Shown here one piece after another: positions 39,548 through 56,264 of a DNA stretch of 64,000 nucleotides; the stretch's first letter is position 1; each line of letters opens with the position of its first letter. The translations under genes and the position numbers were made by a program. A model generated the notes under the pieces. It did no database searches, was not told the origin of the DNA, and saw nothing but the letters and a program-made list of their open reading frames with translations. The stretch spans positions 7,296,001 through 7,360,000 of the forward strand of contig CAVUSO010000001.1 in the NCBI GenBank assembly GCA_963744145.1, in the 5' to 3' direction. The DNA comes from an uncultured cyanobacterium (GTDB lineage: Bacteria > Cyanobacteriota > Cyanobacteriia > Cyanobacteriales > CAWUOF01).

Positions 39548-42262
39548 TTAGTTAATATGAGAATCAATCCATTTCAAAATTCCTTCATCATCAAATTCTT
39601 GAGCTAATTTCAAAATTTCCTGGCAAAAATTCCGATATTGCGGGTCAAACTCTTGTAACAGATTAACTTCCCGTTCAACTTTTTCAATATCACCGATTCG
39701 CGCAGCTTTCTGTAAAGATTCTAATTCTGCAAGGGAAGGTATAACCATTATTTTATCTTCATTCACTTCCGGTTTAACCGCAGTAAAATCCGGATTAATG
39801 ATCCATTCTATTTCCAACCGATTTCTCAATTTCTCCAACAGTTCTGGTAATTGGATTGGTTTGAGTAAAAAATCATCACTATTAAAGGGAAGTATCTGTC
39901 GATCGCTGAGAGAAAAATTATTAACAGACATCGCAATAATCGGTATTTTTTGCAATTCCGGTGAATCTTTTAGATGTCGAATCATCTCCATTCCATTCAT
40001 TTTTGGCATCACTAAATCAGTTAAAATTAAATCAGGTTTAGCGATCGCTGCTTTTTCCAAACCTTCTACTCCATCACTTGCTTCGAGCAACTCAAACCCA
40101 TAAGGTTTAAGTAAATCAATCATTAAAGTTCGACTTTCAGTGCGATTATCTACTACCAATAATTTCACTAACTCCCGACCAGTAAAACCAGTAATTATTT
40201 CTGGTTGAGTATATTTAGCTAGTTCTCCTTTTTCTACTCCTAATTCTAGGTTTAAATCAAAATGGAAATCACTTCCTGTACCTAATTCCGAAGAAACTTG
40301 TAAAGTTGAATCCATCAGTTGTAATATTTTTTGACTAATCGCTAGTCCTAATCCCGTCCCTTCCGCTTTACGTTGATTTTCTCCTACCTGTTCAAAAGGT
40401 AAAAAGATTTTATCTATTTGATCAGCAGTAATCCCTACCCCAGTATCTTGAACTGCAAACCGGATTTTTGTAGTTATTTGTCCTTGTTTAGTCACCTGAT
40501 TATTACCCAGTCCGATCACTTTCAAGGTAACCGAACCCTGATCAGTAAATTTAATTGCATTACCTAATAAATTGATTAATACCTGTCGTAACCGTTTTTC
40601 ATCAATCCGGACTCGTTCCGGTAAATTTTCGGCAAATTCACATTGAAAAATTAAATCTTTTGCTTCTGCTTTAATTCGACAAATTTCTGCTACACCTACC
40701 AAAAAACTTGGGAAATATATATCATGAACATAAATATCTAACTTTCTGGCTTCAATTTTTGCTAAGTCTAACAATTCATTAATCAGATTTAATAAATAGG
40801 AACCACTTTCATAAATAATATTGATACCTTTGCGATCGTCTTTAGTCAAATTTTGAGAACGTTGTAAAATTTGGGTATAACCTAAAATCCCATTGAGGGG
40901 TGTTCTAAGTTCATGACTCATCGAAGAGAGAAACTCGCTTTTAGCTTGATTAGCAGAGTCAGCATTTTCTTTAGCTAACTCTAATTCATGAGTTCTTTCT
41001 TTTACTTTTTCTTCCAAGGTTTGAGCATATTCAGCTAACGCTTCGTTGGCTTTTTTTAGCCGGAATTGATTATAATAATTACTAATTAAAATTCCGCTAG
41101 CGACAATTGCTAAAAATGGCGCAAAAAATGGGATTACCCAACCTTGTAAAAAAGCAGTATAGCTAATTAACCAAAGACATATTCCGGCTAAAATAATCAT
41201 CAAACCTGTACTGAGAAAGAACCAATTTTTCCCAGCAATTTTTTTCCGCAAAACCTCCCAAGTGCTAATAGCACTAACTAAAGACCACAGAACAATCCAA
41301 AGTTGATTGACCCATAGCGACCAAACTTGCAATTGATAGCGTCCATCTAAAGCACCGCTTACAATTTGACTACAAATATTCCCGTGAACTACTACACCTG
41401 GAGTAAATAATTTTTGGTTAAATAATGAATTACTATAAGGTGTTTGTAAAATATCGTTGAGACTCAGAGCTGTCACTCCAATTAAGACGATGCGATCGCG
41501 CATGAACCCAGGAGGAATCTGGTTTTTTAATACTTCAGTTAGTGATATGCTAGGAAATTTTTCTAACTGTCCTCGATAATTTAGTAAAAGCTGATATCCT
41601 CCTGTATCTTTTTGGACATAACCCCCTTCATTTCCCTGTAATGGAATCAAAGTAGTTCGACCTAAACCATATTTTTTCTGTTTTTTATCTAATATTTTTG
41701 GTTCAATTCCTTTCTGTTTTAGATAAAATAATGCTAATTTCATTCCCAAGCTTTCTTTTCCTTGCACCGACAATAAAGCTCGACGTACATTACCATCACT
41801 ATCAATGCTCAGATCGGATGCGGCAACTTGGTCAAGTTGATCTAAAGTGGGTGGAGGTGGAATTTTTTCGGGTGTGACTTTTTCCAAACCGATCAGGTTT
41901 GGTGTAGCTTTATATAAAGCAATTAACTGCTGATGTCCTGGTTCTACGGGGATGTCTCGATATAAATCCATCCCAATCACAGCAGGTTTTTGAGCCTTAA
42001 TATATTTTAGCAGTTGGGTTAAGGTCAAATCAGACATTGGCCATTGCCCGACAGCTTTAATATCAGCTTCTCCTGCTGTGACGATGACAATACGATTATC
42101 CGGTGGTTCTGATGAACGTAGACCAAAAAATTGGTCAATTGTTACCCATTCAAGCAATTGGAAAGCACCTGTGATGTTTCCAACTATGACTAATCCACTT
42201 ACAATCAGGGCAATGACAAGAATTTCTCGCCATTCTAACCATTTTCGGATCGGCAGTTTCAT
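39548..42262 (-). CDS. CHASE2-domain hybrid histidine kinase
   Basis: CHASE2 motifs ([31 protein letters not shown]), three TM helices, [10 protein letters not shown] and a receiver domain. Confidence 0.93.
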
Positions 42263-42270
42263 TAACTAAG

Positions 42271-43542
42271 TTATAGTTGTTCCTGCAAAGGTTTTTCGGC
42301 TAAAGATTCTAATTTTACTTGCTTTAACAAATCAGACCATTCTTTGGCCAAATTTGCATCAGTTGGATGGGTGAAACGAGCTGAACTTAATATGCTCAGG
42401 GTATCATACCAAATTCCCGACTTGCCATATAAAGCTGCTAGTTGGATCACATTTAAAGACCCCGATGCTGATGGAGCTGGAACACGCTTTACCCATCCGT
42501 TAATACTGTAAGCATCCGGACGCATAATTTCACCTGGTTTGAGCAGAATGATTGACCATTGATAAGGTTTGCCCATTTCTAAAGGTGGTGCATCTTGGGG
42601 TAATTGAACCCCCACAATACCTCCAGTTTTGTGTAATTCTAGATTTGTTTGATAGTGATACAGTCGATCTTCACTATAAACACTCAAGAAAACATTCTTA
42701 GCGGGTGTATTAGGAATATAGAAAAAGAAAGTTGGATGTTCAGATATTGTTAAACCAATATTGGTGTTTGGTAATAAGGCTGTTGGATAAAGAGTTAGAC
42801 TATCGCTCCGAGAACCTCCTCCTTTGGTGCTGACGGGTTGTTGGTCATCGGTCGAGCCAAAATCTACATCTCCCCGAGAACCTCCTCCTTTGGTAATATG
42901 AGGAGTCTGATCATCAGTTGAGGTGAAATCTACATCTCCCCGAGAACCTCCTCCTTTGACGGTATTGGGAGTCTGATCATCAGTTGAGGTGAAACCGATA
43001 TCCCCTCGAGAACCTCCTCCTTTAACTGTGGTCGGAGTTTTATCCTCAATGGAGCTGAAACTGATCATTCCCCGAGAACCTCCACCCCTAACTGTAGTTG
43101 GGGTTTCGTCTTCAATTGAGCTAAAGTTGATACTGCCCCGAGAACCTCCACCTCTAACTGTGGTTGGGGTTTCGTCTTCAATTGAGCTAAAGTTGATACT
43201 GCCCCGAGAACCTCCACCCCTAACTGTGTTGGGTGTTTGATCATCAGTACCAGTAAAGTTGATACTGCCCCGAGAACCTCCACCCCTAACTGTGTTGGGT
43301 GCTTGATCATCAGTAGTAGTAAAGTTGATATTGCCTCGAGAACCTCCCCCTAACAGTTTATAGGCAGTTTCGTTAGTAGGTGGTGCAAATTGAATATCAT
43401 TTGCTGAAAAAATATGAAGATTAACTGGCACTTCACCAGCATAACTCATGGTAGCCCCTAATGCTACTGATGATGCGATCGCTACTATTCCTAGTTGACG
43501 ATGTATTCTTCTATACTGTCCAGCTTTTTTTGGCCTTTTCAT
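42271..43542 (-). CDS. DUF928 family exported protein with tandem 22-aa GGGSRG repeats
   Basis: Signal-peptide-like N-terminus, nine GGGSR motifs at a 66-nt period, and a DUF928 core (ALLP, PTFFFYIP, GIWYDTL, WSDLLKQVKL). Confidence 0.9.
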   Translation of the reverse strand: MKRPKKAGQYRRIHRQLGIVAIASSVALGATMSYAGEVPVNLHIFSANDIQFAPPTNETAYKLLGGGSRGNINFTTTDDQAPNTVRGGGSRGSINFTGTDDQTPNTVRGGGSRGSINFSSIEDETPTTVRGGGSRGSINFSSIEDETPTTVRGGGSRGMISFSSIEDKTPTTVKGGGSRGDIGFTSTDDQTPNTVKGGGSRGDVDFTSTDDQTPHITKGGGSRGDVDFGSTDDQQPVSTKGGGSRSDSLTLYPTALLPNTNIGLTISEHPTFFFYIPNTPAKNVFLSVYSEDRLYHYQTNLELHKTGGIVGVQLPQDAPPLEMGKPYQWSIILLKPGEIMRPDAYSINGWVKRVPAPSASGSLNVIQLAALYGKSGIWYDTLSILSSARFTHPTDANLAKEWSDLLKQVKLESLAEKPLQEQL

Positions 43543-43887
43543 GGTAGTAAATTACCCTCTCTTTGGAATGGCTATCAACACAATTATATATTTCGTATAC
43601 TAATCTTTATCTTAGTACAACTAATTGCTTGATTCTCAACTTTATCTATTTTTTACAATTGCTTGATTCTCAACTTTATCTTTATCCGATATTTATTCAA
43701 CATTGTCTAATGTCTAGGTCACCAAAGCTTAAAATTAGCTTATTAATTCCTTAACCTAGACATCTTATAATTATACATTTTACCAAATCTGATAATTGTA
43801 TTATTCATTACTTAATTGGACTTCTTGCTAAAATAATTTGGACAGATAGCTGGCCTGCCCCATCTCTGGTCGCCATAATTTTCAGAA

Positions 43888-46617
43888 TTAAAGCCAATTA
43901 CCAACTAAAACAAAAGGAGACCAGAAAAAAGGATGTTGATACTTAGAATGGATTAAAGATATCTGAGCTTGACGTAAAGCTTCAGCTTTGCTAGAAGCAT
44001 CTGTGGTTAATTGATGATAAAAATTGATCATTAATTCAGCCGTAGATTCGTCTCGCACTGACCATAAAGTAGCCATGGTACTGCGGGCACCCGATCGCAG
44101 AGCAATTCCGGCAATTCCTAGAGCAGCTCGTCGATCGCCATCTGCTGTTTGACAAGCACTTAAGACTAAAAGTTGCAGCGGATTTGGCGATTTTCTGGAT
44201 TGGAATGCGAGTAAATCTCCAAATTCTTTGACGTTGATTTCTCCATCCCAAGTGAGGAGAAAAGTTTGTTCAGCATCAGAACTAAATTGACCGTGGGTAG
44301 CTAGATGGATGATATCAAAAGCATTTTCTTCGATTTGGCTTTTTAAACCAGTACGAGTAAATTTTTGATCAAGTAAAGTATGGGAATGGTGGTCTAATTG
44401 AGAAAGAATTTCCTTAATTTCAAGTTTGACTCCTGGTAAAGAAGGAAACCCTTGACGAGATTCAGTCAATCCAGCCGTAAGACTATGTAATCTGTTTTTT
44501 GATAAAGTTTGTGGACTGAGCAAATATAATCCCGAACTCAGAGCAACAGCATAATTTTCGATCAGGTATTGTTTGCCATCATAAAGAGCTGACATGGGAA
44601 TATTGCGGAGAAATCCATCTAAAACGAATACTATAGTTTTAATTTTTTGACGATCTAAATCTGGTTTAACTGGCTTAACCAGCCAGTTATAAACTATCTC
44701 CGAATAGCGTAACCTTTCTTGATCGGAATAGTCATAATTGAAGGAAGAATAAAGTGTTTTTAAAGTCTGATCTACTTCAATTTCAGAGAGTTTAGTAGCA
44801 TAGTGTCTGAGTGGTTGGTGAGGAACAGAAACAATCACTTCTAAGCGATCGCTCAGAAAAACAGGATAAATTACTGCTGCGGTTGGATCGATCTGGTCAA
44901 CCGCCACCGGGCCAGTTCTTAAACAAGTATCTTGGAAATAATTATCTAGTTCAGCTAATTGTAAAAATTTGATCACATTACGAGCCAGTTTCATGTCCTC
45001 TTGACTCGCATTTTCTGACAATAATAAATCGATTAGTTGGCGATGAATGGGTTCAGCGTTCTCATTAAAACTAAACTGAATTTCCCGGTTATTAGCAATG
45101 AGGTCACTGCGTAAATTTTGAATTGCCTGAAAAGCTTCTTGATAGTTAGCGAGGGCTTCTTGGCGTTTACCTTCTTGTTTAAGTAAATGACCAACTTGCC
45201 AAGCAGTAGTAACAATTAATTCATTAGAATTTTTCAGTTGTGCAATTTTTAGAGCAATTTGAGCAAGCTGTTTAGCATCTTCATCCTGTTGTTGGTATTC
45301 ATAAACCTTACTGAGTTGATTAATCGCATAAGCTTCGGCAATTTGATCGTTAATTGTTCGCGCTACATTAATTGCTTTGGTTAAATCTTGCACCCTTTCT
45401 TGCCAATTAATTACCCTGGCATTTTTTTGATTTTGATCTACCAGTTTCATCAAACTCTGGTTGAGATTGACTTGAGTAAAAACATAGTAACGACTAGGTG
45501 GAATCTGGGCAATTTCCGCTTTAACTTCAGGTAGAATGGCGATCGCTTGATCTGCCAATTTTTGCGCCACCATTAAACTTAATTGATTTAATTGAATTTT
45601 GGCTTTTAATCCAGGGTTAGTCGTAATTCTTAAGGCTTTTTTATAAAAATCAAATGCTTCTTCGATCGCATCGTAATCTCTCGCTAGATTAGCTATATCT
45701 AATAAAGTAGCAGCCCGATCATTATTAGTTATTTTCGCATCTTTAATCGCTAAACTTTTTTCGAGGACTTTGACGGATTTGGTAAATTCTCCCATTAATC
45801 TTAATGTTACTCCCAAGCTCCGTAATCCCGATGCTTTTAATACTGGATCAGGTTCTTGTTGAATTTCTTGGAGCGTTTCTTCTAACAATTTCCGACTCCG
45901 CTGATACTGTCCCATGCTCCGGATTGCTTGAGCTTGATTGATTTTGCTCCCCCACATCCCCTGAGAATTTCCGGCTTTTTTGTACAGAGATTCAGATTGT
46001 ATCCAACTTGCTAAAGCTAATTCAGCTTGTCCTGTTTTTAGTTGCGATTTTCCTTGGGTATTCAGAGCTTGTGCTAATACAGACCATCCAATTGGATCTG
46101 CTGCAGCTTGATTTTCCAATAACTTGATGCTACTTTCAATGGCTTTATCGGCCAGTTGCCATTCTCCTAAATCTTGATATGCTGAAGATATGTTAGTTAA
46201 TAATGATGCTTGGGGTAAAATTAGTTTCTCAGATGCTAGAATATTTAGGGCTTGTTGCCAAATCGCGATCGCTTCTTGATAGCGTCCCTCTTGCTCGAGT
46301 TTTCTTCCTTGTTCTATTAATCCTTCTGGTGTTTGGACTTGTTCAACCACTCCCATATTTGTTGGGACATGGGCAAAAACTGGCATCACTAGCGTTACTA
46401 ATAATAAAGCTACCAAACCTAACCCTAAATAAAAAGAAGATCTGGCTAACTTTCTCAGGAAGTTTTCCAGAAGTAATACCAATTTAATGTGAAGTTGCAC
46501 AAAGCTAAATCCCCCTAAATCCCCCTTAAGAAGGGGGACTTTTAATTCTGGCTCCCCCTTTTTAAGGGGGTTGGGGGGATCAATTCTATGCAGCTTTTTT
46601 TTGAAAAATTTATACAT
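43888..46617 (-). CDS. TPR-CHAT (caspase-like clan CD) protease
   Basis: Hydrophobic signal/TM segment, TPRs, catalytic HLATHG and LSACQTA, ending HPFFWSPFVLVGNWL. Confidence 0.93.
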   Translation of the reverse strand: MYKFFKKKLHRIDPPNPLKKGEPELKVPLLKGDLGGFSFVQLHIKLVLLLENFLRKLARSSFYLGLGLVALLLVTLVMPVFAHVPTNMGVVEQVQTPEGLIEQGRKLEQEGRYQEAIAIWQQALNILASEKLILPQASLLTNISSAYQDLGEWQLADKAIESSIKLLENQAAADPIGWSVLAQALNTQGKSQLKTGQAELALASWIQSESLYKKAGNSQGMWGSKINQAQAIRSMGQYQRSRKLLEETLQEIQQEPDPVLKASGLRSLGVTLRLMGEFTKSVKVLEKSLAIKDAKITNNDRAATLLDIANLARDYDAIEEAFDFYKKALRITTNPGLKAKIQLNQLSLMVAQKLADQAIAILPEVKAEIAQIPPSRYYVFTQVNLNQSLMKLVDQNQKNARVINWQERVQDLTKAINVARTINDQIAEAYAINQLSKVYEYQQQDEDAKQLAQIALKIAQLKNSNELIVTTAWQVGHLLKQEGKRQEALANYQEAFQAIQNLRSDLIANNREIQFSFNENAEPIHRQLIDLLLSENASQEDMKLARNVIKFLQLAELDNYFQDTCLRTGPVAVDQIDPTAAVIYPVFLSDRLEVIVSVPHQPLRHYATKLSEIEVDQTLKTLYSSFNYDYSDQERLRYSEIVYNWLVKPVKPDLDRQKIKTIVFVLDGFLRNIPMSALYDGKQYLIENYAVALSSGLYLLSPQTLSKNRLHSLTAGLTESRQGFPSLPGVKLEIKEILSQLDHHSHTLLDQKFTRTGLKSQIEENAFDIIHLATHGQFSSDAEQTFLLTWDGEINVKEFGDLLAFQSRKSPNPLQLLVLSACQTADGDRRAALGIAGIALRSGARSTMATLWSVRDESTAELMINFYHQLTTDASSKAEALRQAQISLIHSKYQHPFFWSPFVLVGNWL
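46477..46614. mobile_element. 138-bp MITE/REP element inserted in frame in the CHAT 5' end
   Basis: One end is TACCAATTTAATGTGAAGTTGCAC, related to the 297-bp MITE TIR; the other end is degenerate. Internal CCCCCTTAAGAAGGGGG and CCCCCTTTTTAAGGGGG hairpins. Confidence 0.75.
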
Positions 46618-48482
46618 ACTAGATTTTTGAGTTTACCTTGATCCGAGAGTTACTCGATTAACTTTAATTATTTTAAGTGTTGCTCTTGTTCACTAAAATA
46701 TTTATCACTGCTACTTTAATCTGTTATAATTTCTAGGTTAAATTTTTAGTTAACCCTAGTTTTCTAAATTTATTAGGCACTGCCAGTAATCTAGCGCGAT
46801 CGGTACAGAAAAAAGATTAAAATTAGGTTAAGCTATGTTTAAAATCCTTGACAATTCCTGGGGCGATCGGCTAGGAGCGGCGAGTTCGGCCCAGAAGCGC
46901 TCAAAACAATTTCTCCTTTTTCATTGATTTGCCATCCTGTGACTTCTCTAATTACTGGTAAGGTGGGAGTTGTTAATCTAGCCGAAGAATTAGCAGAATT
47001 TTGGGATAAGACTTGACTGGTGTAATCTGTGTAATCTTGCCAAATATCCTCACTATTAAATGGTTTGCTCGGATCATCTGATAAACCACCCCTTCTGGTG
47101 ATCTTAAACGTATCGCCACTACGTTTGGTACAATCGGCAATAATTTGATGAGAAGCATCAGCGAATTGTTGTGGTAGTTCGATTAATTCCGCACTGGTTT
47201 TAAGATCAGGAGTATTGACTTTGACATTACCAGAAATTCCAAATTGAGAAGAAGCAGTAATATTACTATCAGGAGAAAGGAACAAACCCGTAGTAGTAAT
47301 TAAAATATTACCACCGCTACCTCGGACAGCATTAGCATTAATGGTACTACCTTCAATGGCAGCGATCGTACCAGAATTAATGGTCAAATTGCCCCCATCA
47401 CCAACTGAGCCTAAAGCATCTACAATGATTTCACCACTATGGCGTAATTGCAAGGAATCTTGCACATTCAGAATCACATTACCACCCTGTCCAGATGCGG
47501 TAGAGCCAGTAATAAAGCCACCACGCTGTAATAATACATCTGTAGCATTTAACTGGAATTTTCCCGCATTTCCAGTTCCTTGATGTTGTACACCAACTCG
47601 CGCCCCATCTTGCACTGTCAGACGACCTGTATTAATAGTTAATTCACCTGTATTTCCTGAAAAATTAGGTGGCAATCCGAAATAATTGAGAATTTCATCA
47701 TTTAATTTAAAACCACTAGCTGAGATATCTGAAGGCTCTCCATCAGATTTAGTACCGCTAACCAAAATTGAGTCTGGGGCGTTAATTGTAACTTTACCAG
47801 CATTCCCAGAAGTGCTAGTTGTAGAATTTACTTGTCCGCCATCAAGAACGGTTAATTTAGGCGTATTAATCAGAGTATTACCTGCATTTCCAAATGCAAA
47901 AGTATAGGTGCTGATATAACTCGCAGCCAATAAAAGCGATGGGGGTGCTGTTCCAACCACTTCAATACTCTCAGATGCCTTGATATTAATATTACCACCA
48001 TTTCCCGTTCCATTTCCTGGTAATTCTTGTCCGATTCGATTAAGGGGAGAAGTATATATAGTTGATCCTAGTAAACCTCCATTTGTAATGCTTAATCTAG
48101 AGGTAGATAAATTCACATCACCCGCCGAGCCACTGTTATAAGTTACGCTACTGATTGCGCTATAAATAGGAGTATTATCATTACTATTTATAGCTCCATT
48201 AATATTTACTAACTGGCTAGCATCAATAGTAATATTGCCAGCATTGCCTGTTCCATTTCTAGGTGCTGGTTCTGCGATTTGGTAAGGAAATACTGCTGTT
48301 AAAATTTCACTTCCACTGTCAAGTCTCAATTGTTGGGTTGATATCGCTACATTCCCTCCATTTGATCCTCCCGAAGTATCTGACCAAATTCCCCCACTGA
48401 AATCACTTTCAAAGGAATTTATTCCATTTGCGGAGATTGAGTCAGAAGCATTAACGCTGATATCTCCTCCAATTCCATTTCC

Positions 48483-49939
48483 CAGGGTAAGAGCATCTCA
48501 ATTAGGCTTGACACAAGGATTAAGAAGGATCTAATGTAGACTCAGAGAAACAAGAAAGGAGGATTTGGAGCATATAATTATTATCCATAGCAGCGCGTTT
48601 ACTTTTCTGGCGTAAACTGCGTTTGTAAGTTGACTCGCGATTAAGAGCGTTGAGAGCTAATCGTCTGAGCAGAGAAAAGTTACGAGGACTGTGAAAAGAA
48701 CGAATGCGACAGCTATCTTCAAAAAAAGTACAATCTAAAGTCCAGTGTGCAGAATTTTCGATTTCCCAATGTTGACGAATAGCTCGACCTATGAATTCAG
48801 CATTGTTGTCTAAAGAAGTAAGATAGTATTGAGTCTCGCAAGTAGTTTTGTTCCAAAGATGACGGATACGATGAATGATGACAATACTTTTTAAACCTGC
48901 CCATAATTTGGGTTGGTAAAGGTCAGGAATGGCCGTAATAGGGAACACCCAAACTTCACGAATTTCCACCCGATGATGCCCTTTCTCAATCCGTTTGTCA
49001 TGAGTGAAATCAATTCCTGAAAAATTATTTTTCTGTGCAGTTTGGAAGAATTGTTGTACCTGATTATGTAAAGTTGGATGATTGGCTTTAAGTGTCAGAA
49101 TATAATCAGCTTTTTTATCAATAATCTTTTGAGCAATTTCGGTTTGGGTCCCCATCGCATCAATAGTAATAATTGAGCCAGCGATATCAAGTAACTCTAG
49201 TAATGCTGGAATAGCTGTAATTTCATTGGATTTATCTTGGACTTTCATTTGTGCTAAAACTAATCGTTGTTCACTAGCCCACGCACTAATCAAATGTAAT
49301 GCTGATTGTCCTTGATTTCGGTCATAGGAACCTCTGACAGTCTTCCCATCTATGGCAATTACTTCTCCTCCCATTTGAGTAACTAAGGTGTTTACCCAAG
49401 CTTGAAAACATTGCTCCAATTGGTTGGGGTTAATACTTTCAAATACTCGACGAAAGGTATCATCTGAGGGAATACCATTGGGTAATTCTAAAAACTCTTC
49501 TAGCCAAATTTGTTTACTAATCCCATAATTCTCAATGTCTTCCCAGCCTTGTGCTCCAGCTATTATGGCCAGAATTGCCATCACTAAAATGTCTATCAAT
49601 AAGTGTTTTTTTGTTCGGTTTACTCTCGGGTCTTCAACATCTTCAAAATGCTTGACTAAACTCTGTTGTATTTCCATCAAGTCAGCTACTACTTGGTTTT
49701 TCCTAGCAGAATGGGAGTTTTGTTTAGCATTAGCTATATTGATATCGAACCCTTGAGACATTTGAATATTCCTGGAGATTATGAGTTGGACGGTATAGTT
49801 TTTCACCTACCACTCTCTATGCTCTTTTGTCAACTATTTTCTCTACCAGATTTGTGATGTTCTGATCTCGATGGCTATATTTCATATTTGATGAAAATAT
49901 TCTGTATCCTCGGTGACAAAATTAGATGCGCTAACCCTG
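48483..49939 (-). mobile_element. ISAs1-family insertion sequence
   Basis: TIRs CAGGGTAAGAGCATCT / AGATGCGCTAACCCTG, with an 11-bp direct repeat ATTCCATTTCC on both flanks. Confidence 0.93.
48520..49761 (-). CDS. ISAs1 family transposase
   Basis: DPR, PSDDTFRR, IAIDGKT, KSNEI, TIDAMG and HWEIEN motifs; ORF intact. Confidence 0.95.
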   Translation of the reverse strand: MSQGFDINIANAKQNSHSARKNQVVADLMEIQQSLVKHFEDVEDPRVNRTKKHLLIDILVMAILAIIAGAQGWEDIENYGISKQIWLEEFLELPNGIPSDDTFRRVFESINPNQLEQCFQAWVNTLVTQMGGEVIAIDGKTVRGSYDRNQGQSALHLISAWASEQRLVLAQMKVQDKSNEITAIPALLELLDIAGSIITIDAMGTQTEIAQKIIDKKADYILTLKANHPTLHNQVQQFFQTAQKNNFSGIDFTHDKRIEKGHHRVEIREVWVFPITAIPDLYQPKLWAGLKSIVIIHRIRHLWNKTTCETQYYLTSLDNNAEFIGRAIRQHWEIENSAHWTLDCTFFEDSCRIRSFHSPRNFSLLRRLALNALNRESTYKRSLRQKSKRAAMDNNYMLQILLSCFSESTLDPS

Positions 49940-51578
49940 ATTCCATTTCCTTGAGTTAGAGAATAAATTCCCCCTCCATTAGATAAAGTTAATCGATCTG
50001 TGGACAGAGCAATTTTTCCGCCATTTCCTCCACCCAAACTTATACTATTTAAGCCACTACCAAAGGAATAAAAAGGGTTGGCATTATTGGCGATAATATC
50101 GGTAGCATTGACAGTAATATTACCACCATTTCCCGGGGCATTTTGTCCTACCAATGTAGTGATTTGCCCCCCATTAGTTAGCATCATTTCTCTAGTTGAG
50201 ATTTTGATATCTCCTCCATTACCAGTCGCAAAATTTTCGCTACTGATCCGACTATTAGGATTTTTGTCTAGCTGAATTGGAGTAGTGCTGGTTGGTGATA
50301 CCCCATCGATGTTAATTGTATCGGCTGTGACTGTAATATTTCCAGCTATTCCTTGTCCTAAATTTAAGGTTTCGATCCGTCCCCCATCTTGAATATTGAT
50401 TTGGGGTGCAGTAACAGCGATCGCACCTCCTTGACTACTAGATCCTGATTCAATTTGATTCACAATTGCGGAACTTAAACCAGAGTTTGTCCCAGCAATT
50501 TCCAGAGATTTACTAGCAGCGATCGCGATATTACTCCCAGTTCCAATCCCATTATTACTCGCGCTAATTTGGGAACCATTGAGGATACCGATATCACCAC
50601 CAACTAAGGAAATACCACTATTACCTAGGTTGGAAACATTCACGACCGAGGAACTCAAGGTAATATTGCCAAACTGTTGCACCTGAGCATATCCTAAAGT
50701 CCATCCAGATAGATTTTGGGAAAGACTAACTTGTCCTAATTTCACGCTCCCAATTTCAATCCGTCCTCCGGTCGCGATCGCACTGGCACCTGTTAAAACT
50801 ACATCTCCACCAACTAATGCTAATGTATTTCCAGGCGCAACCGTTAAACTTCCTGAACTTTGCACTGTCCCTGAATTAGGTTGATTCCATTGTAAACCGA
50901 TCGGAACATTCATGCTCAACAATGGAGGAGCCTGTGGATTACTAGCACTATAAATACTACCATTGGATAGTTGAATACTGTTAGCGGTACTACCGAAAAA
51001 AGCACCACCAATATTTAAGCTGGTATTCGGTCCAAAAATTATCCCGTTCGGATTAGTTAAAAATAAATTTGCTCTACCGTTAGTATGAATTGAACCATCT
51101 ATATTAGAAATATTCTTACCTGTGACACGGGTGAGAATATTGTCAATTCCAATTGCATTATTAAAAAATGCTCCTGTATTCGTAGGAATCGAAAATTCTT
51201 GGAAACTATGGAAAAGTATATTACCTGATCTGGTCCCCCCTTCAATTTGAAAGGTATTCCCTTGATGGCTTACAACTGAAGGTTGAGATAACGTAGCATC
51301 AGGAACAATTTGGGCTGTTGCTATATTTGCCCAACTCAGAAATATAATTATGCTAAAACTACGGCATAGCATAGAGTTTTCCTAGGCGTATTTATAACGC
51401 ACTTATGAAACAGATTTAGTTCAAACTTACATAACCTCTTCTTAACATCCCATCGTTATATTATAATAAAACTAAGATCAGATTAAGATTAGTTTAAAGA
51501 CTATCAGTAAATAGGCGATCGGGGGATGACTCCCCCTTAAAAAGCAGGGCTATTTCATGCTCGATTCTCATATAATCT

Positions 51579-51703
51579 GACCTAACCCCCCAACCTCTTC
51601 CCTAGGAGGGCAGGGGGAGTAATTAAGATGATTAAATTGATGGGAGTGAATCAGACTCATTCTTGCTCCCCTTTCCTCTTAGGAGAGGGGTTGGGGGAGA
51701 GGT
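51579..51703. repeat. G/C-run REP-like repeat
   Basis: Second copy of the family at 25375-25470. Confidence 0.75.
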
Positions 51704-51781
51704 TCTGCTATCAAATAATATATGATTGTATGATAATTATGCGATCGCTATATGAGCAAAAAAAATCAGCCTAAATTAAAT

Positions 51782-54700
51782 TTAGTTTAAATTCCCTTGA
51801 CAAGAGGATGGGTAGAGAAAGGAAGAAAGAGAATTTGCTTCAGATGTAACTAAAACAATTTCTCCTTTTTCATTAACTTTCCAACTATTTGCTTCCCTAA
51901 TTATTGGTAAGGTAGGAGTTATTAATTTAGCCGAAGAATGAGCAGAATTTCGTCCTAAAAATTGACTGGTGTAATCTGTCCGATCTTGCCAAATATCCTC
52001 ACTATTAAATGTTTGACTTGGCTCTTCTGATCTCCCACTCCGTCCACTTACCTTAAATGTATCTCCACTCCGTTTGGTACAACCGGCTACAATTTGATGA
52101 GCAGGATCAGTAAATTGTTGTGGTAAATTAATGAATGCAGCTACAGATTGGATATCAGGAGTATGGACAGAAACATTTCCAGACACTCCAAATTGGGAAG
52201 AAGCTGTAATCTGACTATCAGGGAAAGTAAACAATCCTTGAGTAGTAATAAAAATATTACCCCCCTCTCCTTTAACAGCATTAGCACTGATGATGCTAGT
52301 TTCCAAATTAGCTAAAGTATCTGTATTAATATTAATATTACCCCCATTCGCAATCCCTTGAGCTTGCACAGTAATTTGACTTTGATCGCGTAACAGTAGA
52401 CTGTGGGAATTAATGGTAACATTTCCCCGATCGCCCGAAATAGCTGAGACGGCAATTTGCCCATGATTATTCAGCAATACCGAATTAGCTTGAATATCCA
52501 CATTTCCAGCTTGAGAAACTCCCTGTCCGACCTGGGGAACATCAGCAATTTGGAAGTTACTTGCGTTAATTAAAGCACCATCACGAACAATTAACTGATT
52601 CGTTTTAATCGCAATATTACCCGCATCTCCGATCGCACTTGCAGCATTAGTAAATATGCCATTACTACTAATGCTATCAGTTCCAGCAAGTTCCACGCGA
52701 TCGCGAGCATTAACTGTGATATTGCCACCTTTTCCATTCCCAATACTCGAACTAGTTAGACGTACACCTACTCCCTGATCTAACAATAGCGTACCTGTAT
52801 TAATTACAATATTACCTGAATCTCCATAAAAACGAGTATTAGCAGTAATCCCGGCTGTCGTACTACCAAAAGTCCGACTACTAGCACCGATTAATTTAAT
52901 TTGATTAGCTGCATTAATAGTTAGTGTTCCTGTTTTACCTGTTCCTTGAGTATCGGTAGAAATATTTCCTTGCTGAATCAGTAAATTACCAGTATTAATA
53001 GTCAAATCTCCCCCATTACCACTGTCATTAATTCTTGCTACAATTCCGGAGGTACTGGTATTAATTAAGTTGATATCTTGGGCAGAATTTATCAATAAAC
53101 TACTCCCCATACTGTTAGGTTGGGAACTAAAGGTATTAACATTTATTTCTGCACCATTTTGCACTGTTAACGTTCTCGTATCAATTCTTAATAGTCCCCC
53201 GTTACCAGTAGCTCCTGGTCTAATTTGGGAAAATATCCCACTGCTGTCTATATTATTAGATGATACTCCTGATATCTGAATCTGATCAGCAATAATATTG
53301 AGATTACCAAGATTACCAGCACCATTGATATTACCAGCAATCCGAGCGCCATTGCTAATTAATAATTTATTAGTATTAACATTCAGATTTCCCGTGTTTC
53401 CTAGTCCAGAAGATAGGGTTAAAATCCCACTATTTACTTGTTGGTTAGGATTAAAATTGTTAGGATTTAGATTAGTAGCTTTAATCACTGATGGATTACC
53501 AGGATTAGCAACAGAAATTTGTAAAGTGTAAGTTTGTCCCGGTTGGGGAGCTTTCCCCTCTAAAGGTACATTATCTGAAAGAGTAGTATTATAAACACCA
53601 ACCGCAATCACATAAGTACCTGGTTGTTTGAGCGTAGTAGAAAGATAGGAATCGTTCCTAAATGTACTACCTCCAGCACCATTTGTGATCGGAGAATCAT
53701 CATTACTACCAAGTAATGCTCCCGTCTTGCGATCGAATAAGAATATCTGGGTATCAATATTACCTGGAGCTAGACGTACAGAAGTTTTTTCACCATAATC
53801 GATATCAAAAATAGCTTTTGAATTCGGTTGACTGGTCGCAAATTGATAGTAGTCATAAGAGGTAGTTGCTGGACCTAATGGTGTTCCCCCCTGAACTACT
53901 TGGGTTGGTGTTCCCCCTAGAACAATTTGAGTAGGTGTTCTCGAAACAGAGACATGGGGAATAGTCTGGGATGATTCTATATTTGGATTAGCTTGGGTAT
54001 TAAAATTACTGGGAACGAGCGTATAGCTGGTGACTTGATCAAAAGGATTATTAGTAAAGTTGTTACTAATCCCGTCTAATGATGCTGTATCTGTAACTTT
54101 TACATTAATATCTCCCCCATTACCTTTACTAGTGCTTGAAGTCAGAACTTGTCCTCCAGTTTGGAATTGTAAATTACCTGTATTGATCTGGATTAGTCCA
54201 CTCGGATTATTACTATTAGTTACTGTCGCGATAAAACCCCGATCCGATATATTTAAACTCCCCTGGGGATTATTAATTGTAATGTTCCCACTCGGACCAC
54301 TGGTTTCATTGAGGGAACGAGTTAAAATCCCACTAAAAAGTCCATCCGTTGTAAACCCAGAAATATCAATATTGTTCTGAGCATTAATTACAATATTTCC
54401 TGATGCTCTACTATCACTGGTGATCGTTTGAATTCGTGAACCATCTTGTAATTTTAAAGTACCCGTATTAATTTGAATCGGTTGGAAACTATTCCCAATT
54501 AAACTTTGTTGACTCAACCGAGTAGCTTGGGTAGTATTAATCGCGATCGCTCCTGATGTTCCTTGGATTTGACTAGCGGTTAAATCCAGATTATTACTAT
54601 TAAGATTAATTTCACCTCCTTGCAATTGAGCGGTTTGGAAACTAAGATCAGTTGCTAATAAAGATAAATTGCCAGAACTAGTTAAATTACTTCCTTGAAA

Positions 54701-55270
54701 TTGGATTGAATTACGGGGATTACTATATTGTAATCCGGCTGGTACATTAATAGTTAATAATGGTGGTGCTTGGGGATTAGTAGCACTAAAACTTTGATCA
54801 TTATTAAACAGAATACTATCTGATGTTACTAAATTAAGTGAACCTTTAAGATCTAGTTGAGCATGAGAACCAAAAATAATCCCATTCGGGTTAATCAAAA
54901 ACAGATTAGCATTTCCTAATACACCCAAAGTCCCGTTAATATTGGAAGAATTAACACCGGTAACCCGCGTGAATATATTAGATATTCCGACTGGATTATT
55001 AAAATATGCCGCACCTCCAGTTGGAACATTAAATTGTTGAAAACTATGAAATAAATTACTCCCTCTTGTAGTTCCACCTTGAATCAGCAATTTATTACCT
55101 TGGTTACCAACCTGAGAAGGATTCGGTAATGTTACATCAGGCACAATTTGGGCTTGGGAGATATTTGCCCAATTCACCAATATGATTAGATTCACTATAC
55201 TAAATTGACTTATTTGTTTACCAAATTTAGTCCCATTGGTATTAGTAATAAACTTTAGTAAGCTATTCAT
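51782..55270 (-). CDS. Filamentous haemagglutinin / TPS-domain exoprotein with inserted PPC-like domain
   Basis: Signal peptide ending AQIVPD, NLFHSFQQFN, NPNGIIFG, beta-helix repeats, and the insert DTQIFLFD...NDD...GTYVIAV. Confidence 0.9.
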   Translation of the reverse strand: MNSLLKFITNTNGTKFGKQISQFSIVNLIILVNWANISQAQIVPDVTLPNPSQVGNQGNKLLIQGGTTRGSNLFHSFQQFNVPTGGAAYFNNPVGISNIFTRVTGVNSSNINGTLGVLGNANLFLINPNGIIFGSHAQLDLKGSLNLVTSDSILFNNDQSFSATNPQAPPLLTINVPAGLQYSNPRNSIQFQGSNLTSSGNLSLLATDLSFQTAQLQGGEINLNSNNLDLTASQIQGTSGAIAINTTQATRLSQQSLIGNSFQPIQINTGTLKLQDGSRIQTITSDSRASGNIVINAQNNIDISGFTTDGLFSGILTRSLNETSGPSGNITINNPQGSLNISDRGFIATVTNSNNPSGLIQINTGNLQFQTGGQVLTSSTSKGNGGDINVKVTDTASLDGISNNFTNNPFDQVTSYTLVPSNFNTQANPNIESSQTIPHVSVSRTPTQIVLGGTPTQVVQGGTPLGPATTSYDYYQFATSQPNSKAIFDIDYGEKTSVRLAPGNIDTQIFLFDRKTGALLGSNDDSPITNGAGGSTFRNDSYLSTTLKQPGTYVIAVGVYNTTLSDNVPLEGKAPQPGQTYTLQISVANPGNPSVIKATNLNPNNFNPNQQVNSGILTLSSGLGNTGNLNVNTNKLLISNGARIAGNINGAGNLGNLNIIADQIQISGVSSNNIDSSGIFSQIRPGATGNGGLLRIDTRTLTVQNGAEINVNTFSSQPNSMGSSLLINSAQDINLINTSTSGIVARINDSGNGGDLTINTGNLLIQQGNISTDTQGTGKTGTLTINAANQIKLIGASSRTFGSTTAGITANTRFYGDSGNIVINTGTLLLDQGVGVRLTSSSIGNGKGGNITVNARDRVELAGTDSISSNGIFTNAASAIGDAGNIAIKTNQLIVRDGALINASNFQIADVPQVGQGVSQAGNVDIQANSVLLNNHGQIAVSAISGDRGNVTINSHSLLLRDQSQITVQAQGIANGGNININTDTLANLETSIISANAVKGEGGNIFITTQGLFTFPDSQITASSQFGVSGNVSVHTPDIQSVAAFINLPQQFTDPAHQIVAGCTKRSGDTFKVSGRSGRSEEPSQTFNSEDIWQDRTDYTSQFLGRNSAHSSAKLITPTLPIIREANSWKVNEKGEIVLVTSEANSLSSFLYPSSCQGNLN

Positions 55271-55898: not shown

Positions 55899-56264
55899 TC
55901 AATTGCGTAATAATTGTTGCACAGTTCCAATTAATTCGTGAGGTTCAAAGGGTTTAGTAATATAAGCATCTGCACCTTGCTTCATTCCCCAGTAGCGATC
56001 GAATTCTTCCGTTTTAATGGAACACATGATCACAGCAACATTCTTAGTTTTTGAGTTGGATTTGAGACGACGACAGACTTCATAACCATTCATGCGAGGC
56101 ATAATGATGTCTAAGATCACCAAAACTGGACATTGCTCCTGAATTCGCTCTAATGCTTCAATTCCATCTGTAGCACTCATGACCTTTAATCCACTCTTTT
56201 GCAGGATTTCGGCCATCATCTCCCTTTGGCTCTTACTGTCTTCCACTACCATTACTAAACTCAT
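55899..56264 (-). CDS. Single-domain CheY-like response regulator (PilH/PixH-like)
   Basis: VVEDS, LDIIMPRMNGYEVCR and DRYWGMKQGADAYITKPF. Confidence 0.9.
   Translation of the reverse strand: MSLVMVVEDSKSQREMMAEILQKSGLKVMSATDGIEALERIQEQCPVLVILDIIMPRMNGYEVCRRLKSNSKTKNVAVIMCSIKTEEFDRYWGMKQGADAYITKPFEPHELIGTVQQLLRN

Follow-up and report, generated by a model that had tools for sequence, protein, structure and literature searches.

A gene for a DUF928 family protein, located in a 64,000-nucleotide stretch of the genome of an uncultured cyanobacterium (GenBank assembly GCA_963744145.1, contig CAVUSO010000001.1, forward-strand positions 7,296,001 to 7,360,000; the whole stretch is hereafter the window), encodes nine regularly spaced copies of a GGGSR motif ahead of a single DUF928 domain. 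The repeated unit originates from an element of the DUF928 family itself, is under selection, and belongs to a conserved gene order in which the DUF928 gene follows a gene for a caspase-fold TPR-CHAT protease with an intact catalytic pair and precedes one for a CHASE2 sensor kinase. We tentatively favour, with less than even confidence, a reading in which the array is a multi-site recognition and, probably, cleavage target of the neighbouring TPR-CHAT protease and feeds the CHASE2 sensor. This reading is put forward because three features coincide: an invariant Arg in a flexible loop, an adjoining conserved and apparently active CHAT protease, and an amplification of the loop up to nine-fold. 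Export of the DUF928 and TPR-CHAT proteins, cleavage after the Arg and coupling to CHASE2 are the steps that we infer.

In the 423-residue protein, GGGSR lies at residues 65, 87, 109, 131, 153, 175, 197, 219 and 241, with a distance of exactly 22 residues in all eight intervals, and the motifs occupy positions 42808-43350 of the window. Tandem Repeats Finder reports a period of 66 nucleotides with 6.8 copies and 84% matches, plus an overlapping row with 3.3 copies. Motif positions and repeat finder thus bear out the original prediction, made from the letters alone, of an invariant GGGSR at 66-nucleotide spacing in nine units; the eight linker strings that it listed were correct on re-checking. 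The first unit (NDIQFAPPTNETAYKLLGGGSR) is divergent and is closed by the first GGGSR, after which eight closely related units follow. Nucleotide identity among the units ranges from 58 to 97% and is highest between neighbours; units 2 and 3 (94%) and units 4 and 5 (97%) are recent duplicates. Contigs from one sequencing run (X1) are identical to the window and fragmented within the repeats, and a second run (X2) covers positions 43339-43516 only.

On either side of the array, the protein has the features of an exported, folded protein. Its first 35 residues, judged by inspection, comprise a basic start, a hydrophobic stretch and S-Y-A ahead of the likely cut. The Pfam DUF928 profile (PF06051) matches residues 241-419 (E 6.1e-47, 160.2 bits against a cut-off of 26) over positions 2-184 of its 184. 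These flanks bear on the proposal that the protein is the precursor of a ribosomally synthesized and post-translationally modified peptide (RiPP) with multiple core peptides. The multi-copy layout is what such a precursor would share with the array, but RiPP precursors are modified in the cytoplasm, whereas the N-terminus here is Sec-like, and a folded domain of 178 residues follows the repeats. No RiPP maturase family was found among the open reading frames (ORFs) scanned between 28965 and 58153. With a Sec-type N-terminus and no maturase family in the scanned flanks, the RiPP-type precursor envisaged in the original prediction did not hold up, and we regard it as hardly credible.

Comparison with the rest of the family shows that the repeat unit is no new module or peptide cassette but the amplified signature element of DUF928 itself, F-x-P-P...P...G-G-x-[ST]-R-G. 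The source genome (7.7 Mb) has 16 DUF928 matches, and most of these paralogues contain one F/Y-x-P-P...G-G-x-[ST]-R-G between signal peptide and domain; one further paralogue carries 6-7 tandem motif copies. When all open frames of at least 100 residues in this genome (2.38 million residues) were searched for GG[GA][ST]RG, four matched, and all four encode DUF928 proteins; together with the genome census described below, this places the motif beyond chance occurrence. Counted from the Arg, conservation is seen for F (-17), P-P (-15/-14), P (-9; 92% in arrays), G-G-G/A-S/T (-4 to -1) and G (+1), and related arrays are rich in Pro (F-x-P-P-G-D-x-A-P). A search with the repeat region alone against 1.84 billion representatives returned 35 matches and did not find the unit outside DUF928-type proteins; nine longer matches (552-1482 residues) contained zero motif patterns by regular expression. 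Three known motifs were considered by eye and rejected: RTX nonapeptides, with which the motif is out of register; RGD, which is found in some units only; and the PatS pentapeptide RGSGR, whose required upstream basic residue is not conserved across the family.

Selection on the motif is best seen between species rather than within the gene. The codons GGA GGT TCT are the same in all nine motif copies, and only the first Gly codon (GGG, GGT or GGA) and the Arg codon (CGA or CGG) vary. Synonymous difference amounts to 0.15 within the motif and to 0.72 within the linkers, so that the motif DNA is more uniform than protein-level selection alone would require; homogenisation between units could be the cause. 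In the linkers, the ratio of non-synonymous to synonymous differences (pN/pS) is 0.35 and synonymous change is near saturation, so most units are old and under purifying selection. Across DUF928 alignments of 114 and 89 sequences, the motif Arg never varies, and its flanking residues (G-G-G-S and G) are conserved to at least 90%. The invariant Arg of other species, and not the codons within this gene, seems to us the decisive evidence for selection at the protein level. The earlier argument that the motif was kept despite synonymous variation is therefore weak within the gene, with three of its five codons fixed, but its conclusion of protein-level selection stands through the cross-species Arg. 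The evidence supports a genuine, ancient array under purifying selection.

Arrays are not peculiar to the window protein. In a sample of 182 DUF928 proteins that is biased towards arrays, and in which motifs were counted by a regular expression that misses variants (one protein, L036, scored 0 and has six copies by eye), 102 proteins contain one motif and 53 contain three to nine. The expectation that DUF928 proteins usually have one or a few motifs is thus correct for the single-copy majority, but not for the 53 array proteins. Nine copies, the highest count observed, are found in this sample only in the window protein and one metagenomic protein. Proteins with 2-9 units come, by their source labels, from related genomes and metagenomes, for example Argonema, Aerosakkonema, Phormidium, Moorena and Leptolyngbya. 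In an unbiased census of 401 genomes of the phylum, DUF928 is present in 125, and a three-motif DNA pattern occurs in 24 against 3 for the reversed pattern; judged by overlapping three-motif matches, no other locus in the census equals the window gene.

The array proteins differ from their single-motif relatives in more than copy number. Of the 102 single-motif proteins, 87 have a Cys no more than 14 residues past the motif, as against none of the 53 proteins with at least three motifs, which marks the array class as an architecture of its own rather than a casual expansion. A further consensus Cys lies inside the DUF928 domain in the single-motif class. From the absence of the first Cys in arrays and the presence of the second in the single-motif class, a motif-to-domain disulfide may have been lost when arrays arose. 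In a tree computed from the domain alone (179 rows), a single 73-row clade takes in 50 of the 51 array proteins, with a support of 94 in the Shimodaira-Hasegawa-like approximate likelihood ratio test (SH-aLRT), and the array label requires 5 changes against 14.6 in shuffles. Nested in this clade is a 6-row, all-array clade (SH-aLRT 100) that includes the window protein, which with its nine units and lack of a Cys after the last motif has all the traits of the array subfamily. The long-branch outlier P0151 and L036 suggest independent expansions. Arrays of 3-9 copies are thus the mark of an old DUF928 subfamily.

Within this subfamily, copy number varies among close relatives (9, 5 and 3 in one group; 6, 4 and 3 in another). 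In a comparison of six such relatives, five of the six proteins have a first unit whose best match is the first unit of another species, and 30 of 36 units find theirs within their own protein, with inner units resembling their neighbours. Given the single array clade, the varying copy number and these within-protein matches, array presence is old and stable while the inner units turn over. This pattern, in which inner units are homogenised within a species and differ between species, is what would be expected if cleavage released eight diffusible 22-mers as species-specific signals, perhaps sensed by CHASE2, and such signals would share all of the support for cleavage. Yet concerted evolution of repeats is expected without a signalling role, the conserved positions comprise flanks and strand-like residues with no obvious peptide core, and single-motif proteins would yield one N-terminal peptide of variable sequence. 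We consider released 22-mers improbable.

Structure models place the motif outside the folded part of the protein. AlphaFold predicts residues 250-423 as a beta-sandwich followed by three helices with a predicted local distance difference test score (pLDDT) above 90, and the last motif (residues 241-247), beside this domain, has a pLDDT below 50. In a modelled single-motif paralogue, residues 63-66, which adjoin the motif Arg, likewise fall below 50. On the basis of these two low-scoring stretches, the motif is modelled as an exposed, flexible, low-confidence loop outside the fold. The best match of the domain among solved structures is the C-terminal domain of MtxA (4z29_B), with a Z-score of 9.9 and a root-mean-square deviation of 3.9 over 146 residues (model residues 252-418); the matches that follow have Z-scores of at most 7.9. 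Foldseek gave no match against the PDB at E <=0.001, with generic Ig and FN3 folds only, and a sequence profile search against the PDB gave nothing meaningful (best E 0.64).

The repeat region itself is modelled as two strands per unit, in the form of stacked beta-hairpins, and this weak prediction raises the alternative, named in the original prediction as a refuting case, that the array is a beta-solenoid or beta-roll stalk, that is, a rigid spacer for the DUF928 domain in which the motifs form turns and the Arg is structural. The modelled region matches the beta-helices of CAP (1k4z, Z 7.4), TBCC (5cya, Z 7.0) and EtpA (8vba, Z 6.7), and the conservation of hydrophobic residues at i and i+2 (I/V and F) suits beta-strands. 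Yet the pLDDT of the repeats is only 50-62, and according to the tool a Z-score below 8, which covers the whole range of 6.7-7.9 found for right-handed beta-helices, may reflect a merely common arrangement. Only about 3 of the 22 residues per unit are hydrophobic, and related arrays are Pro-rich. Most family members have a single copy of the motif, modelled as disordered, and there a solenoid is impossible. A structural stalk seems to us a less likely but credible alternative.

The neighbouring genes supply candidate partners for the motif (Table 1). The TPR-CHAT ORF begins with basic residues followed by a hydrophobic segment, as do the N-termini of its homologues (840-940 residues); translation probably begins some 40 codons past the first ATG. 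With basic residues ahead of one N-terminal hydrophobic segment, its TPR and CHAT parts are both probably outside the cytoplasm. His775 and Cys822 of the CHAT domain are invariant in 108 sequences, so the catalytic pair is intact and the protease looks active. On the other side of the DUF928 gene, the CHASE2 kinase gene starts 8 nucleotides past the stop codon. The gap between the CHAT and DUF928 genes contains, as pattern matches, a terminator-like hairpin after the CHAT stop codon (43860-43840) and two perfect 25-nucleotide direct repeats (43623-43647 and 43657-43681) that are 34 nucleotides apart; repeats and hairpin suggest a separate, regulated DUF928-CHASE2 transcript. The protease neighbour invoked in the original prediction is thus directly upstream here, and at nine array loci in other genomes CHAT is directly upstream in seven and CHASE2 directly downstream in six. 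The gene order of TPR-CHAT protease, DUF928 and CHASE2 kinase is conserved.

Table 1. Positions, within the window, of the DUF928 gene, its parts and the genes around it
Feature	Position	Strand	Remarks
DUF928 gene	42271-43542	-	ORF, 423 aa
Predicted Sec signal peptide, aa 1-35	43438-43542	-	translation inspected by eye
First unit, aa 48-69, NDIQFAPPTNETAYKLLGGGSR	43336-43401	-	ancestral-type F-x-P-P...GGGSR; orthologous to the first unit of relatives
Eight tandem 22-aa units, aa 70-245	42808-43335	-	each G-x-[IV]-x-F-...-D-x-x-P-...-[RK]-G-G-G-S-R
DUF928 domain proper, aa 246-423	42274-42807	-	beta-sandwich, then three helices; Pfam PF06051
Predicted exported TPR-CHAT (caspase-fold) protease	43888-46617	-	Pfam CHAT, E 2.4e-60, and TPR families
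CHASE2 hybrid sensor histidine kinase with receiver	39548-42262	-	Pfam CHASE2, HisKA, HATPase_c, Response_reg
CHAT-DUF928 intergenic region, 345 nt	43543-43887	-	terminator-like hairpin and direct repeats; pattern matches only
Two-partner-secretion (TPS) cargo genes, upstream	46839-55270	-	four ORFs
TPS-domain ORFs	51782-55270 and 49882-51372		upstream cargo genes
IS4-type transposase	48520-49806		PF01609 and PF13808
Beta-helix-repeat ORF	46839-48329		no Pfam match
Stand-alone response-regulator receiver gene	55899-56264		upstream of the TPS genes, on the same strand (-)

Association of the three families extends beyond the array loci. In the source genome, a CHAT match is found within 6 kb of 10 of the 16 DUF928 genes, and a CHASE2 match within 2.5 kb of 9 of the 16. 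In the set of 401 genomes, all 125 with DUF928 have CHAT, and 44 CHAT-positive genomes are without DUF928; no genome had DUF928 without CHAT. CHASE2, present in 366 of the 401, is near-universal and does not discriminate. Argonema and Phormidium plasmid entries recur among the top DUF928, CHAT and CHASE2 matches, which suggests that they carry the same three-gene set. The CHASE2 sensor domains that are 46-55% identical to that of the window are linked to diverse outputs, namely kinase, SpoIIE phosphatase, adenylate cyclase or GGDEF.

In the protease-target reading, the Arg loop of DUF928, amplified in tandem to nine copies in a lineage-specific manner, would sit in a protein exported to the periplasm. 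There, the Gly-rich Arg loops would be repeated recognition, and probably cleavage, sites for the exported TPR-CHAT, with the Pro-containing stretch some 9 to 17 residues before the Arg (F-x-P-P...P) as a possible docking element. TPR-CHAT would cut after the motif Arg, a specificity proposed because HetF, the one cyanobacterial CHAT protease that we found characterised in the literature searched, cuts after Arg. Processing of DUF928 would then set the input to the CHASE2 hybrid kinase, and the many cuts or binding sites per molecule would provide gain, buffering or a counter. The alternative offered in the original prediction, in which the array is a multivalent bait for the protease, is as viable as its polyprotein reading.

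Several observations weigh against the protease as the reader of the array. AlphaFold stacks the units as beta-hairpins that resemble right-handed beta-helices (Z 6.7-7.9), and an element that folds or pairs as strands would suit the alternating x-[IV]-x-F-x pattern. The Gly at +1 is retained in 90% of 158 inner units, as opposed to only 28% of 53 last units, and may thus belong to the start of the next unit instead of a cleavage site. Because the genomes behind the co-occurrence counts are related and abound in all three families, these counts lack independence and are suggestive only. Finally, the gap between DUF928 and CHASE2 is 8 nucleotides, against 345 nucleotides with a terminator-like hairpin between DUF928 and CHAT, and on this tighter spacing the primary partner could therefore be the sensor.

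The last point leads to an alternative in which the array is a multivalent ligand or tether that stays uncut, its loops engaging a partner through avidity. This partner might be the periplasmic domain of CHASE2, the TPR portion of the protease or some other protein of the envelope, and the array would replace the single, disulfide-pinned motif of other family members. Besides the short gap and the position of CHASE2 directly downstream in six of nine array loci, such a role would suit the contrast in the Cys that follows the motif (87 of 102 single-motif proteins, 0 of 53 array proteins), as well as the lability of copy number in arrays whose presence is stable. The closest solved fold, MtxA (Z 9.9), is also encoded beside a CHASE2 cyclase gene, according to the accessible part of its description (PMC4439547). 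Set against this, a flexible loop that contains an invariant Arg with Gly and Ser on its flanks is what a protease site typically looks like, and the CHAT gene is equally conserved in the neighbourhood. An uncut tether is in our view somewhat unlikely, though it merits serious attention.

A bolder form of the protease-target reading can also be drawn, as a long shot: a proteolytic gain device in which the exported caspase-like protease would cut after each Arg and the products would be the natural input of CHASE2. This input might consist of released species-specific 22-mers or else of new N-termini, the latter in analogy to the tethered ligands of protease-activated receptors. If so, the size of the signal would depend on how many copies there are, and kin-specific signalling in filamentous cyanobacteria would arise from the species-specific inner units.

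Several further features of the region and genome concern export and the wider protease repertoire. Positions 46839-51372 look like one two-partner-secretion cargo gene split by insertion of an insertion sequence, and the receiver gene beyond the cargo genes could be a partner of the CHASE2 hybrid kinase. The whole source genome is extremely rich in these families, with 85 CHAT, 56 TPS, 18 CHASE2 and 16 DUF928 matches. Several of its open frames, 1400-2300 residues long, combine an N-terminal TPS domain with a C-terminal CHAT, and these would be caspase-like proteases exported by two-partner secretion. A paralogous cluster (G000:C1:3634710-3637629, L003) contains an intact DUF928 gene with 6-7 motif copies, a CHAT gene in two frames with a TAA, and a CHASE2 frame of 412 residues only; it looks like a decaying copy.

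Whichever partner reads it, the array reveals which part of DUF928 evolution treats as the working one, namely the Arg loop, multiplied up to nine times. It is also a testable lead to what orphan CHASE2 membrane sensors detect: neither the Pfam family description nor the accessible portions of the CHASE2 literature examined name a receptor ligand. Cleavage, if it occurs, would connect two-component signalling in multicellular cyanobacteria with caspase-fold proteolysis outside the cytoplasm; should the array instead be a solenoid or an uncut tether, it would be one more ordinary repeat expansion, in a family without known function. In a literature search whose coverage mostly excluded subscription journals, we found no published description of a CHAT-DUF928-CHASE2 module or of the array, and DUF928 received passing mention only, with no assigned function.

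Among known systems, secreted pro-peptides that occur in multiple copies and are cut at basic sites include the yeast alpha-factor precursor, processed by Kex2, and the Sec-exported Phr peptides of Bacillus. They resemble the array in combining a signal peptide with tandem near-identical units, each closed by a basic residue, and in having a membrane receptor and a protease that is dedicated or nearby. They differ in that their precursors are without a large folded C-terminal domain and their products are known, whereas release of peptides from the array is hypothesis only. Closer to the window protein are the single-motif DUF928 proteins, the majority class, which share with it the domain, the invariant-Arg motif, the signal-peptide-like N-terminus and the gene neighbours; they have one motif, with a Cys in 87 of 102, compared with 3-9 motifs and a Cys in 0 of 53 for arrays.

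MtxA of Magnetospirillum gryphiswaldense (PDB 4Z29), likewise a protein without known function, is encoded next to the gene for a CHASE2 cyclase, according to the accessible part of its description (PMC4439547). Like the DUF928 protein, for which export is predicted, it is exported, has an Ig-like beta-sandwich followed by TPR-like helices, and adjoins a gene for a CHASE2-domain receptor; its N-terminal part is flexibly linked and removed by trypsin (PMC4439547). The window protein is MtxA-like in its whole-domain structural match (Z 9.9) and its adjacent CHASE2 gene, a likeness that does not imply common descent. The two have no detectable sequence similarity (profile against the PDB, best E 0.64), and, as compared by description, the accessible text mentions no GG-x-S-R-G motif or repeat array for MtxA. 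Fusions of caspase and CHASE2 domains have also been described, in the portion available of a further report (PMC8195603).

The closest functional parallel for the protease-target reading is HetF and PatU3, in which, as in the proposed pair, a cyanobacterial CHAT protease with a Cys active site is involved. In Anabaena PCC 7120, the CHAT domain of HetF cleaves PatU3 after R117, and the substitutions R117A, R117D and R117H abolish cutting, as given in the accessible part of the report (PMC9457339). From the same text, HetF makes a single cut, R117|S118, with a small P1' residue; in the DUF928 motif, a Gly follows the invariant Arg. HetF differs in architecture, with periplasmic TPRs split from CHAT by a transmembrane segment, whereas here TPR and CHAT both follow one hydrophobic segment. 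The substrates differ as well: PatU3 is described there as a regulator of cell division and heterocysts, while DUF928 is a putative exported substrate with nine candidate sites.

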